From a virus (lineage: Duplodnaviria > Heunggongvirae > Uroviricota > Caudoviricetes), in IMG/VR virus record IMGVR_UViG_3300011560_000039: a stretch of 24,717 nucleotides of DNA; one strand, given 5' to 3'. The notes below the pieces were generated by a model. The model was not told where the DNA came from. It ran no database searches and saw only the letters and a program-made list of their open reading frames with translations. Made by a program: the position numbers and the translations under genes. The stretch's first letter is position 1. The number at the start of each line of letters is the position of its first letter. Below are positions 10,753 to 16,987 of this stretch, piece after piece.

Positions 10753-11502
10753 ATGGAGACTGTTTTTGACGCACTGAAAGCAATGGGAAAAGCCACATCC
10801 ATAGAACTTGCTGCGCGACTTGATATCAGTCGTGAAGCAGTGCTGAACGAACTATGGGAACTGAAAAAAGCTGGTTTCGTTGATAAAAGCGCGTACACCT
10901 GGCGTGTGGCTGATAACAACGTTCAGCAGGAACAGCCAATGCAGGCAGAACTGCCGGAAGAAACCACCACGGCAACTGTAGTGAAAATCTCAGAGTGCGA
11001 TTTAACCGCGACGATTGAACAACGCGGACCACAAACGGCGGATGAACTGGCTACGCTGTTCGGTACAACATCCCGCAAAGTTGCTTCAACGCTGGCAATG
11101 GCAATCAGCAAAGGACGCCTGATTCGCGTAAACCAGAACGGTAAATTTCGTTACTGCATACCGGGCGATAATTTACCAGCAGAGCCGAAAGCTGCATCGG
11201 TAACGGAAACTGATTTTAAAGCCTTTCCTCAGCCAGCAGGTGTTGCGTTACCGGTACAGAAAGATGCAACACAGGAAGATATTAAAACAGAAACTGTAGC
11301 GGACATTGTGCAGTCGCTGCCATCGTTTACTGAAACGCGAGCGGATGACCTGGTTTTACCATCACTGCATATGGCAAACCGCGAACTGCGTAGGGCGAAG
11401 AATCATGTCCAGAAGTGGGAGCGAGTCTGCGCCGCGCTGCGGGAGCTGAACAAGCACTGGGATATTGTCCATAAAGTTATTGCAGCAGGTATGGAGAAAT
11501 AA
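10753..11502 (+). CDS. ydaW: YdaW-like protein with two tandem winged-helix-like segments (apparently full-length), ~250 aa from ATG 10753
   Basis: [43 protein letters not shown] and a second similar segment [34 protein letters not shown]; track ORF starts at 10702 inside ydaV without RBS support. Confidence 0.7.
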
Positions 11503-11755
11503 ATACTCCTGATTATATGAGTCATCCTGCTGCAGTTGTGACCAATATGATCGGTTGTGCAGAGTTCTTCAGATAGGGGTAATGAAAACTGCGGTGATTT
11601 GTATTCGCTGCAGTTAATATAAACTCGTCGAATTTTTTCATGAAATGTGATCTTAGTCATATTTATATCACGTCTATTTATCAGGTTCTGATGAAATCAT
11701 CAGGTGTTAAGATACTATTTGTGCTGTCACCTCAATGGGTTAAAAAGGAATCTGG
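11503..11755 (+). promoter_or_regulatory. AT-rich upstream region of the cargo gene with a 16-bp palindrome CTGATGA-AA-TCATCAG (11688-11703) and a 9-bp direct repeat GCTGCAGTT (11529-11537, 11607-11615)
   Basis: Repeats read directly; AAGGAA Shine-Dalgarno 7 nt upstream of ATG 11756; promoter hexamers not confidently assignable by eye. Confidence 0.45.
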
Positions 11756-13825
11756 ATGAAAGGTAATATTCTTGGGGATATCCGAGCTGAACATGACGAA
11801 AAGATGTTGGAAGCTTCATTTTGGCAAACAACTGATTATAAAGCTCTTCTCGAATCCTACGATCGATGCATCATTGTTGGCCGCAGAGGAACAGGAAAAA
11901 GTGCTCTGGTGCATATGCTTTCCAAACATTGGCATGCTAAGCCAAAAACCTATGTGATGACTATTAGTCCGGTTGAAGAACAAATTATTGGATTAAGGGA
12001 TGTTATTTCTTTATTTGGTGAAAATTACTTACATATAAAAGCCGGTAGCAAGTTAGCATGGCGATATGCTATTTATATGGAGCTGCTTTCTGAGATCGCA
12101 AGTCATTACAAGATGAAAAACGATCTTGACTACAAAAGTGTAGAGTCGCATTTATTATCTTGGGGACCGAAGAGACAAAATATAAGTAGCAAAATAAGAA
12201 AAAAATTGAACGCTATTCTCGATGATAACAAAAATATAAAACCAGCTACAAGAATAGCCGAATTATCCGATAAATTTGAACTTGACTTATTGGAAGAGGT
12301 GATAGAAGAAGCAATTTCGAAGTCAAATAATCAATTTGTTATTTTTGCTGATAGGCTTGATGAAGGCTATACACCGGATAATCTTGGTGTTGCAATAGTT
12401 GATGGTTTCATTCAGGCTGTGATTGATATAAAACAAAATATGAATGAAAAGGTTATTGCCTTTGCATTTGTTAGAGATAATATTCATCGAGCCATATCAA
12501 AAATGGACCCTGATTTTACTCGAAATATTGAAGGGCAAGTACTGAGATTACATTGGGATGAATATAACTTGTTTAATCTTGTATGCAATAGAATGAGGGT
12601 CGCTTTTAACTCAACCATTGAGAACAACACGAGGGTGTGGAATGCTTACACCGCAAATGAATTACAGTCTAATACCGGTTTTAAAGAAACATTGAAACTG
12701 ACTCTATATAGGCCAAGAGATATTTTGGTTTTGTTAAATAATGCATTCTTGCGAGCAAACACACATGATCGTAATCGTATTGTCATTGATGACATTCAAG
12801 CAACAGCGAATACTATTTCACAAAATAGACTCAATGATTTGTTAAAAGAATATGAGAATGTATTTCCTGCATTAGATATATTTACATCGCAATTTGCTAA
12901 TAGCAAACCTTACTACAGTGTTTCTGAAGCGTCATCTAAGATACAATATGCCCTTGATCTCAATGGCGTTATTGACAAGATGAAAATGCAGGATTTACTT
13001 CTTTTTGAAGGGCCAATCCAGGTGATTCAACGACTTTACAGTGTTGGATTTATTGGGTTGTATAACCAGCAGTCATCTTCATATGTATTTTGCCATGACG
13101 GTAAGGAACCTGAAAAAGAATTTACACCAGATTCAAAATTGCTATTGCATCCATGCTACTGGCTAGCATTAAGTGTTCATGAATCAGAGATGACTCCCGA
13201 TGCTGCTGATGATATTCATGATGAATATGATATTGAGGTCAGCTCTGTTTCCGAAGAGCAGAGGAAACAACGAATCGGTTCGTTGCTCCAAGAACTACAT
13301 AATATACCTGAAGGACCTGAAGGTGCTGTCGATTTTGAAGCATGGGCGCTCAAAACTATAAAGTTACTATTTGCTACGAATTTAACGAACATTGAGTTGC
13401 ATCCCAATAAAAATGGGTTGCAGCAAAGAGATATTATAGCGACAAATATAGCTGACACTCCAGTTTGGAAGAGAATTCTGACAGATTATCAGACACGGCA
13501 AGTTGTTTTTGAAGTGAAAAACTATAAAACATTAGGTGCTGCAGAATATAGACAGGTAAATTCCTATTTGTTTAAAGACTATGGGCGGATAGCTTTTATC
13601 ATAAATAGAGATCACACAGAGAATTTAGAAAAACATAAAGAGCTTACGTGGGTAAAAGAAATTTATGATAATCATAATAAATTAGTTGTGAAGTTACCCT
13701 CTAAGTTCCTTGAAAGGCATCTGTCAAAAATGAGAAGCCCGCAAAAACATGACGAAGTTAATAAACAATTAGGTAAACTGCTCGATCAGTACATAAGGGT
13801 CTATTTAAATAATAAATGTAAGTAA
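11756..13825 (+). CDS. Cargo protein, 689 aa: N-terminal P-loop NTPase (Walker A GRRGTGKS; Walker B-like VIFADRLDE) with a C-terminal PD-(D/E)xK-like nuclease motif (D..x24..EVK); candidate anti-phage defence or abortive-infection protein
   Basis: Long ORF with RBS; markedly AT-rich compared with flanking Rac genes; motifs read from the translation; occupies a variable position between the replication and nin/Q modules; not recognised as a named family. Confidence 0.85.
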   Translation: MKGNILGDIRAEHDEKMLEASFWQTTDYKALLESYDRCIIVGRRGTGKSALVHMLSKHWHAKPKTYVMTISPVEEQIIGLRDVISLFGENYLHIKAGSKLAWRYAIYMELLSEIASHYKMKNDLDYKSVESHLLSWGPKRQNISSKIRKKLNAILDDNKNIKPATRIAELSDKFELDLLEEVIEEAISKSNNQFVIFADRLDEGYTPDNLGVAIVDGFIQAVIDIKQNMNEKVIAFAFVRDNIHRAISKMDPDFTRNIEGQVLRLHWDEYNLFNLVCNRMRVAFNSTIENNTRVWNAYTANELQSNTGFKETLKLTLYRPRDILVLLNNAFLRANTHDRNRIVIDDIQATANTISQNRLNDLLKEYENVFPALDIFTSQFANSKPYYSVSEASSKIQYALDLNGVIDKMKMQDLLLFEGPIQVIQRLYSVGFIGLYNQQSSSYVFCHDGKEPEKEFTPDSKLLLHPCYWLALSVHESEMTPDAADDIHDEYDIEVSSVSEEQRKQRIGSLLQELHNIPEGPEGAVDFEAWALKTIKLLFATNLTNIELHPNKNGLQQRDIIATNIADTPVWKRILTDYQTRQVVFEVKNYKTLGAAEYRQVNSYLFKDYGRIAFIINRDHTENLEKHKELTWVKEIYDNHNKLVVKLPSKFLERHLSKMRSPQKHDEVNKQLGKLLDQYIRVYLNNKCK

Positions 13826-13835
13826 TTCAATCTTT

Positions 13836-13867
13836 ACCGAAAGATCATGTATCTTTCGGTATTTTTA
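13836..13867 (+). terminator. Rho-independent terminator of the cargo gene (stem ACCGAAAGAT / ATCTTTCGGT, loop CATGT, then ATTTTTA)
   Basis: Perfect 10-bp inverted repeat followed by a T-run, 11 nt after the stop codon. Confidence 0.75.
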
Positions 13868-13959
13868 AGTGAGAGTAATCAAAATCGTAATGAGAGCTAT
13901 ATAATAATCTGTATAGATTAATTTACGAACGATTCAACATTTACCGTTATTATGACGGT

Positions 13960-14095
13960 GCAGGTTGCAAGGAAAGACCTCTGCGAGGTACGAATCCGAA
14001 CCGACCAGACGGAGGTCGCTGTCTTCACAGCTTACGAACTTGGGGAGTAAGAGGACCAGCGGGGAGAAATCCCCGCAACCTCTGATGTATTATGC
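13960..14095. other. GC-rich structured island inside an otherwise AT-rich ~650-bp non-coding gap; candidate structured ncRNA or gene remnant
   Basis: Local hairpins GCGGGGA-GAAA-TCCCCGC (GNRA-type loop), ACCTC-TGC-GAGGT and GACC-AGACGGA-GGTC; no ORF of 60 aa or more on the + strand. Confidence 0.35.
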
Positions 14096-14513
14096 ATCCT
14101 CAACGCAGCCACAGTTAACCTGATTGGCGGGTTTACTTCATCTGTAAATATTTTTATAAAAATAATGCCCACGCACAGCATAAAACAAAAAGTATTACAG
14201 ATAAAAAAGGAACGTAATGTACAGATTTGTTGTTTTCCATATTTACTCACCTTAATATGATTAACCCTGATAGGGCTGTTATTTCAGCGGTTTTCAAATG
14301 AGATATTATGGTGATCTGACAAATTTGCATAACATTAAAATTTAATTTGTTTAACCGCTTTTAATAATAAGCGTTGTTTGTATCCCAGCAATCTGTTGTT
14401 TGGTCTTTATTCCATTAAGGTGGGGGCTTTACACTGGAACCAGTTTATTTATACTTTATACGTCAGCCTGAACAACTGGCATCTGCTGCACTGCGCCATC
14501 GAGAGATTGAGAA

Positions 14514-15113
14514 ATGGCGCATATACAACTGGTCAAACAAACTTCTTCTGGTTTACTTCTCCCGGCGACGCCGGAGAGTTGCGATTTTCTGCATCAAATC
14601 AAAATAGGTGAGTGGATACACGCAGACTTTAAGCGTGTGCGTAACTACGCATTCCACAAGCGTTTTTTCAAACTCCTGCAACTGGGATTCGATTACTGGA
14701 CTCCGGTCGGTGGGGCGATCACGCCTCGCGAACGAGAACTGCTGTCTGGTTTCGTTGATTACCTGTGCGAATCAGTTGGTCGGGAACACACGCCAGCCCT
14801 GAGTGATGCCGCAGAGCAATACCTTAACACCGTTGCGACTCGTAGAACCCGGGATACGGCGTTGCTAAAGTCGTTTGAGGCTTTCCGCGAGTGGGTAACC
14901 ATTCAGGCCGGATTTTACACCGAGCATATTTATCCGGACGGTAGCCGTGGGCGTCGGGCAAAATCCATCGCTTTTGCGAATATGGACGAAGTCGAGTTTC
15001 AGCAGGTTTATAAATCTGTACTGAATGTGCTGTGGAACTGGATTCTGTTCCGTAAATTCTCCTCTCAGGAGGAAGTTGAAAATGTGGCCGCACAACTACT
15101 GGAGTTTGCGTAA
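14514..15113 (+). CDS. nin-region phage protein, DUF1367/YbcN-like, 199 aa
   Basis: MAHIQLVKQTSSGLLLPATPES...AAQLLEFA recalled as a YbcN-type nin-region protein; family name from memory only. Confidence 0.6.
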   Translation: MAHIQLVKQTSSGLLLPATPESCDFLHQIKIGEWIHADFKRVRNYAFHKRFFKLLQLGFDYWTPVGGAITPRERELLSGFVDYLCESVGREHTPALSDAAEQYLNTVATRRTRDTALLKSFEAFREWVTIQAGFYTEHIYPDGSRGRRAKSIAFANMDEVEFQQVYKSVLNVLWNWILFRKFSSQEEVENVAAQLLEFA

Positions 15114-16396: not shown

Positions 16397-16987
16397 GGGC
16401 TGGTTTATTGTATGCCAAATGATTATTAAAAAGGTTGTGTTAATAACAAAATCCGAAATAATATGCCTGCATATTTTTATCTTGCTTATATTCTGCATAT
16501 TGTGCATAGCAGGCTCATCCCTGCAATCAAAACTGTATGATGAGTATTTTTTGTTTTCCTTTTTTCCAGTCATCTGATGATGACCTGCTTCTTTTTAATC
16601 CGGATCGACATCAGTTTTTTAAGATAATTCCTGCGAGTTATATGCATAAATACCACAAACTCCGCATTTTATGTGGTTGGGAGTTGCCGGGCGCGCAGTG
16701 AGTTTGCTAAGAAAACTCCTGCATGGTGAATCCCCCTGTGCGGTGGGGTGATACCATTAACCTTTTCTGTCGCCGACAGGTATCACGAACATTTTGTTCA
16801 CCGGGAGGCACCCGGCACCATGCACTTCAATAGATTCTCTCCACATTATGGATATTCTTTCAGAATATCCCACGCAGACTTTGTGTAAATGTTAACAAAT
16901 GTGCGTTTTATTTGATCTGATTCGCTGTTTGAGCGTCCAAAACAACGGTATATATAATCCTTTACTATATGACATATGTGAGGAAAA

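Follow-up and report, generated by a model that had tools for sequence, protein, structure and literature searches.

The compact GC-rich island that lies downstream of the cargo gene in this prophage is very probably what is left of the 3' portion of a hok/gef type I toxin gene of the hokD type, marking the right boundary of the cargo module. The window, by which we mean the whole 24,717-nt stretch of DNA that was analysed, is a Rac-like lambdoid prophage of Escherichia in which the genes run in the order ydaV, DUF1627 gene, 689-aa Sll1717-family ATPase, DUF1367, DUF1364 and DUF1133/Q-like genes. The island is situated in non-coding DNA, with the cargo gene on one side and the DUF1367 gene on the other. 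This DUF1367 gene, at 14514, was initially annotated as the first nin gene, which it is not in the strict lambda sense; in the Rac and Rac-SA53 phages, the corresponding synteny is hok-(rem)-DUF1367-DUF1364-Q. The sequence at 13826-14513 is 100% identical in many E. coli chromosomes. Elsewhere in the window, two small RNAs scored above their Rfam gathering thresholds, namely the RalA sRNA (the antitoxin of the RalR toxin) at 1557-1735 (225 bits) and the STnc100 sRNA at 16691-16877 (86.6 bits), and a scan for tRNA and tmRNA found none.

The initial annotation had described a GC-rich patch with local hairpins in an AT-rich gap that contains no convincing ORF, and had offered three readings of it: a structured ncRNA linked to the adjacent ATPase, a remnant of a displaced gene, or a recombination scar at the cargo boundary. 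As a description, this holds. The GC content is 0.54-0.55 at 13950-14099 (100-nt windows) compared with 0.26-0.38 in the flanks, and the gap has no ORF of at least 50 aa with a family match and none of useful size; the sole meaningful frame is a fragment of 32-35 codons (13943/13952-14050). Small ORFs on the minus strand (14035-14250 and 13918-14028) and on the plus strand (13965-14120, 14165-14257 and 14378-14608) matched nothing in Pfam or NCBIfam, and no tandem repeats were found. The limits proposed for the island, 13960-14095, require correction, because homology sets them at 13940 to ~14135, a length of ~195 nt. All three of the hairpins that had been named are present, at coordinates slightly shifted from those implied: GCGGGGA-GAAA-TCCCCGC at 14059-14076 (-15.2 kcal/mol, z = -5.05, with none of 200 shuffles as stable), ACCTC-TGC-GAGGT at 13977-13989 and GACC-AGACGGA-GGTC at 14003-14017. 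The latter two are alternatives to one longer hairpin at 13976-14017, which is preferred by the minimum-energy fold. Relative to dinucleotide shuffles, 13960-14095 folds with z = -3.4 and 13940-14140 with z = -4.96. The Rfam search that had been proposed for the island matched no family there (the whole window at gathering thresholds; 13700-14600 and 13930-14180 at E <=10), and the matches returned for the latter two intervals at E <=10 were chance-level eukaryotic snoRNA and miRNA models only.

Of the three readings, that of a displaced gene proved to be correct, what was left behind being the 3' portion of a gene for a Hok toxin. The frame at 13943-14050 matches Pfam HOK_GEF at positions 16-42 of 42 (E 9.5e-13; 48 bits against a cut-off of 22), RefSeq/PGAP records it as a pseudogene, "Hok/Gef family protein, incomplete; missing N-terminus", and 32 of the 35 residues of the truncated frame match residues 17-51 of the intact Hok of E62. 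By homology, the sequence belongs to the hok/gef family; it has residues 17-51 only, and a complete Hok frame with the N-terminal transmembrane helix is absent. It had been stated beforehand that a clear match with the 3' end of a protein-coding gene already known would tell against an ncRNA, and such a match is what was found. At the nucleotide level, homology to annotated hokD starts at 13940-13941 and stops at ~14134-14138 in every comparison among the matches listed, and no homology with intact hok loci was found upstream of 13940. Of 5,426 complete E. coli genomes, BLAST located hok-homologous sequence in 5,425, regardless of the cargo. An allele of 95-96% identity occupies this position in ~50 genomes, and both of the carriers that were examined, E62 and HKUOPY1, have an intact hok followed by the same DUF1367 gene. 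Compared with E62, the window has 0 mismatches over 13970-14145 and 3 mismatches over 13970-14513. Because the island is the leftover 3' part of hok, it is an ordinary gene relic of a known kind, already annotated as a pseudogene, and not a novel RNA. The features of the region are collected in Table 1.

Table 1. Features of the cargo module, the hok remnant and the adjoining spacer in the window.
Feature	Position	Strand	Basis
Cargo module: new DUF1627 3' end, spacer, ATPase gene, terminator, AT-rich spacer	11471..13939	+	Homology breakpoints
Intrinsic terminator of the cargo gene: 11-bp stem, 5-nt loop, T-run	13835..13866	+	Terminator scan; -13.6 kcal/mol, z = -5.5
Diverged hok fragment: ~codons 16-25, residual transmembrane-coding part	13940..13969	+	Comparison with E62 and L029
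Truncated hok frame: Hok residues 17-51 and TAA stop	13943..14050	+	PGAP, Pfam HOK_GEF, comparison with E62 Hok
Crossover interval	13970..14003	+	Identical in the window, L029 and the E62-type hok allele
Coding-region hairpin of hok	13976..14017	+	Minimum-energy folds; two small hairpins use the same bases
Post-stop stem-loop GCGGGGA-GAAA-TCCCCGC	14059..14076	+	Fold z = -5.05
fbi (fold-back inhibitory) element CCTCAACGCAGCC	14098..14110	+	E62 minimum-energy fold
Terminal hairpin of the hok transcript	14113..14137	+	Fold -8.2 kcal/mol
AT-rich non-coding spacer, hok to the DUF1367 gene	14138..14513	+	Common to intact loci

The truncation removed the greater part of what makes a hok/sok locus: the promoter, tac, ucb, mok, the Sok target, the sok gene and hok codons 1-15 are missing from the window. 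The transmembrane part of the toxin is likewise missing, with profile positions 1-15 absent; the truncated frame lacks an N-terminal transmembrane helix as well as a start context and a Shine-Dalgarno sequence. In four intact loci, the Rfam model of the hok leader/sok region, RF01794, gives scores of 89-122 bits immediately 5' of hok, but it has no match in the window; therefore, the leader, the Sok target, sok and codons 1-15 are gone, and neither a hok/sok 5' leader nor an antisense sok is present.

What was retained is the hok coding sequence from codon 17 to codon 51 with its stop, together with a 3' UTR that has a protective stem-loop, the fbi element and a terminal hairpin, and all three of these 3' UTR elements are identical to those of the E62 allele. 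In the hok mRNA of plasmid R1, the last 3' stem-loop of the processed mRNA protects against 3' exonucleases (PMC9841398), and the stem-loop at 14059-14076 corresponds to it by position. In the minimum-energy fold (z = -10.2) of the intact E62 mRNA, whose 3' sequence is identical, GGGUGCUUGAGG at the 5' end pairs with the fbi stretch, and the local hairpins of the window recur; tac, the pairing partner of fbi at the 5' end of the mRNA, is deleted here. The retained parts, together with this predicted E62 fold, match the architecture of the published tac/fbi fold-back model of the hok mRNA (PMC9841398). The terminal hairpin at 14113-14137 is a weak terminator with no clean U-run, as it is in the intact E62 allele, and Rac-type alleles have the canonical terminator ACCCGC-TTCG-GCGGGT-T6 in its place.

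A comparison of the hairpins across homologous loci, which had also been proposed as a check, bore out the pairing, although it yielded little covariation in the coding region. Across 60 distinct hokD-type sequences, the retained hairpins are paired in 99-100% of cells of the comparison, the pairs of 13976-14017 being kept in 99.8-100%, with nearly invariant columns, and those of 14059-14076 in 99.8%. Because the columns of the coding-region hairpin almost never vary, covariation support is weak and conservation says little there. The post-stop stem-loop alternates at two pairs, one of which is GU in 35, AU in 14 and GC in 11 of the 60 sequences, and the other GC in 52 and AU in 7. One long-range pairing in the fold of the remnant, between 13962-13973 and 14070-14081, was rejected: it involves the cargo-linked diverged patch and, with only 54% of cells paired among the hok sequences, was treated as fortuitous. 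The hairpins of the island are conserved folds of the hok mRNA that have survived the truncation, and presumably they now do nothing. The remnant would have no promoter of its own, would stand behind the cargo terminator, and would provide neither a membrane-inserting toxin nor Sok or a Sok target. Because the membrane helix is absent, no toxicity is expected of any product.

The module that replaced the 5' part of hok is ~2.5 kb in size and terminates on the right at codon 16, inside hok. Its gene (11756-13825) encodes a 689-aa P-loop ATPase assigned to NCBIfam ATPase_Sll1717 (254.7 bits against a cut-off of 75). The GC content of this gene is low, 0.33-0.40, even in its homologues from Pseudomonas and Marinobacter, and the protein has weak PADLOC matches to the candidate defence proteins PDC-M36A (residues 527-623) and PDC-M28C. 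On the left, the module begins at ~11465-11470, within the 3' end of the DUF1627 gene, whose last ~10 codons it therefore provides. Homology with the window reaches this boundary in 2,416 E. coli genomes, and only 40 extend past ~11470 into this cargo. On the other side, the intrinsic terminator at 13835-13866 is located upstream of the hok remnant, which therefore lies outside the normal cargo transcript, although read-through or antiterminated transcripts might reach it during prophage induction. An imperfect 14-nt direct repeat, TTCAATCTTTACCG (13826-13839) and TTCAACATTTACCG (13933-13946), brackets the 107-nt spacer from the cargo stop to the hok breakpoint; it was rejected as a signal, being by a rough estimate at approximately chance level for AT-rich DNA.

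Other prophages carry different cargo in the same slot. In one, a DUF977 gene and an IS3 element follow the DUF1627 gene; in another, a fimbrial pseudogene and the Paa adhesin lie between the DUF1627 gene and hokD; and DUF262 and AAA ATPase genes have also been found upstream of hok. The stretch from the DUF1627 gene to hok is thereby shown to be a variable cargo slot in Rac-like lambdoid prophages. The right edge of the cargo is not fixed. In E62 the cargo stops upstream of the hok promoter; in K-12 Qin, whose cargo is relBE, it extends to ~15 nt short of the hok ATG; in the window it reaches codon 16, and in phage 683R6 the hok terminator.

The third of the initial readings, a recombination scar at the cargo boundary, was essentially correct as well, with 13940 as the right boundary and 13970-14003 as the crossover interval. 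The segment at 13940-13969 differs from the intact E62 allele at 8 positions (7 substitutions and a 1-nt deletion at 13942-13943). In the viral contig L029, the cargo, the spacer and the diverged stub are the same, but the hok 3' end is of the Rac/Tritos type, whereas that of the window is of the E62 type; the stub, to judge from these alleles, travels with the cargo. The last mismatch between the window and E62 is at 13969, and the first cluster of mismatches to L029 begins from 14004. Because the switch of the 3' end between L029 and the window falls within 13970-14003, at least one homologous exchange occurred inside the remnant. A homology patch for recombination was provided by the near-invariant hok coding stretch. 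The copies of the cargo-hok junction, in ~40 genomes, are nearly identical; therefore, their conservation does not separate selection on the remnant from youth. In three loci (L008 from E. coli PCP06102, L026 and L028), an IS4-like IS421 element is inserted inside the hairpin at 14059-14076 and duplicates 12 bp (14062-14073); PCP06102 additionally has its cargo ATPase gene broken into two CDSs.

Downstream of the remnant, the spacer at 14138-14513 is 97-99% identical to that of E62 and HKUOPY1 and ~92-95% identical to that of phage 683R6, and it is at the position occupied by rem in Rac and Qin. A rem pseudogene was considered here and rejected, as tblastn with two Rem proteins detected no homology. 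The spacer includes a terminator-like site at 14356-14373 and a promoter-like site at 14428-14455 (TTTACA-16-TATACT, 10/12 matches), both by consensus only; the second of these precedes the start codon of DUF1367 by 59 nt. The sequence directly after the latter site, CAGCCTGAACAACTGGCA, is conserved in Rac-SA53 as well. In the promoter scan, the counts equalled the shuffle expectation, and no plus-strand site was found upstream of the island.

Could the island have a function of its own? It folds better than shuffled sequence, and a candidate defence gene with weak PADLOC matches (PDC-M36A and PDC-M28C) lies directly upstream, which would suit a structured ncRNA partner needed by the adjacent ATPase in the manner of the retron msr-msd or the type III ToxI. 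We regard this as extremely improbable, and the distribution of the two elements does not support it: hok DNA occurs in essentially every E. coli genome without the cargo. Among the 33 loci retrieved with the cargo protein as query (45-100% identity; Phytobacter, Pseudomonas, Marinobacter, Photobacterium, metagenome-assembled genomes and viral contigs), the island accompanies only the 100% identical protein, always within one prophage lineage. The homologues at 45-89% identity have no island and share no common downstream element, and the nucleotide homology of cargo copies that are 74-78% identical stops within ~8 nt of the stop codon. Because relatives of the cargo elsewhere are not followed by such an element, the idea of an RNA partner is unsupported. 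It is opposed further by the strong terminator at 13835-13866 that stands between the cargo and the island, by the absence of the tandem repeats that are the hallmark of ToxI and of any Rfam match, by the nature of the neighbour, which is a P-loop ATPase with no reverse-transcriptase domain (the retron hallmark), and by the IS421 element that splits the main hairpin in three loci.

It is also conceivable, if very unlikely, that the retained hok 3' UTR has been put to new use, either as a stable 3'-derived small RNA or as a cis element (a terminator or RNA stabiliser) for DUF1367-DUF1364-Q. Stable RNAs typically end in structures such as the terminal hairpin and the very stable stem-loop at 14059-14076, phage 683R6 retains the terminator end of hok only, and the Rac-type 3' UTR weakly resembles the Rfam isrK model, at 33.2 bits, which is under the 50-bit threshold. 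However, no plus-strand promoter-like site was found from the cargo terminator to the hairpins, the window allele has no isrK match even at E = 10, the terminal hairpin has no U-run, and the stem-loop is interrupted by IS421 in L008, L026 and L028, which speaks against constraint. The isrK match itself (RF01394, a small RNA of the Gifsy-1 prophage) spans the full model length at L002:1620-1700, in the hok 3' UTR of phage Rac, a segment equivalent to 14059-14137 of the window; this likeness could be due to a distant common origin or to a generic pattern of a hairpin followed by a terminator. With a gathering threshold of 50 bits, the window does not qualify as an IsrK member, and literature searches for links between IsrK and hok, or between Sll1717 ATPases and phage, returned nothing useful. 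Improbable too is a wider proposal in which the remnant is active, as a stable 3'-derived sRNA (distantly IsrK-like) processed from read-through or antiterminated transcripts or by tuning transcription into the late-regulatory DUF1367-DUF1364-Q genes, and the hok stretch in addition acts as a homology handle by which defence cargo hops among Rac-like prophages. There remains the frame of 32-35 codons, which is open from 13943 (ATG 13952) to 14050 and keeps the conserved C-terminal residues of Hok. That it encodes a functional truncated peptide has practically no probability, given that there is no Shine-Dalgarno sequence before ATG 13952 and no promoter, that mok, which is needed for translational coupling, is gone, and that the frame lacks the N-terminal membrane helix, with V to M, L to Q and T to A substitutions in the residual part. 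A truncated R1 Hok with a stop codon was non-toxic (bioRxiv 10.1101/2025.08.07.668861), which again counts against such a peptide.

If the island is a 3' remnant of hok at the edge of the cargo, how could the junction have formed? Rac-like lambdoid prophages have a complete hok/sok cassette, consisting of the promoter, the tac/ucb leader, mok, the Sok target, the antisense sok, a 51-codon hok and the 3' UTR, just upstream of the DUF1367-DUF1364-Q genes, and an ancestor of this prophage presumably did too. The 2.5-kb Sll1717-family ATPase module has taken the slot, replacing the part of hok/sok that lies 5' of codon 16. The cargo, with its diverged hok stub, is joined to an E62-type 3' end in the window and to a Rac/Tritos-type 3' end in L029, through a crossover within 13970-14003 in either of the two lineages.

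The impact of these results on annotation is small, in that the NCBI pipeline already flags the hok pseudogene and the hairpins are well-studied folds of the hok mRNA. Nevertheless, hairpin-rich GC islands beside prophage cargo may be decapitated type I toxin loci, and a comparison with hok-family sequences should come before any proposal of a new RNA. The loci considered here form a graded series of hok/sok erosion at the right edge of the slot, from the intact cassette of E62, through K-12 Qin, in which the leader is lost, and the cut at codon 16 described here, to phage 683R6, in which nothing but the terminator end persists. The crossover inside the remnant shows, furthermore, how cargo moves among prophages.

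Among known systems, hokD (relF) of the K-12 Qin prophage is of the same hok subfamily as the remnant, with ~85% nucleotide identity, and occupies the same place in the prophage, with rem, the Q-proximal genes and Q downstream of it. It was likewise decapitated by cargo, with relBE replacing the whole hok leader; however, the 51-codon hok frame is intact in Qin, whereas in the window the cut lies 45 nt inside the gene, and the toxin itself was therefore destroyed. Pedersen and Gerdes (1999) are said to have attributed the inactivation of hokD to a major rearrangement. The intact hok/sok loci (E62, HKUOPY1, Rac, Rac-SA53 and Tritos, and that of plasmid R1) have the 3' coding region and the 3' UTR elements in common with the window, which differs from them in having no promoter, tac, ucb, mok, Sok target, sok or codons 1-15. 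Lambdoid phages exchange modules at conserved boundary sequences, including the slots for morons and defence cargo. The window resembles such an exchange in its varied cargo between conserved flanks and in the crossover within a near-invariant stretch, but it differs in that the homology at the boundary is provided by a decaying toxin gene.
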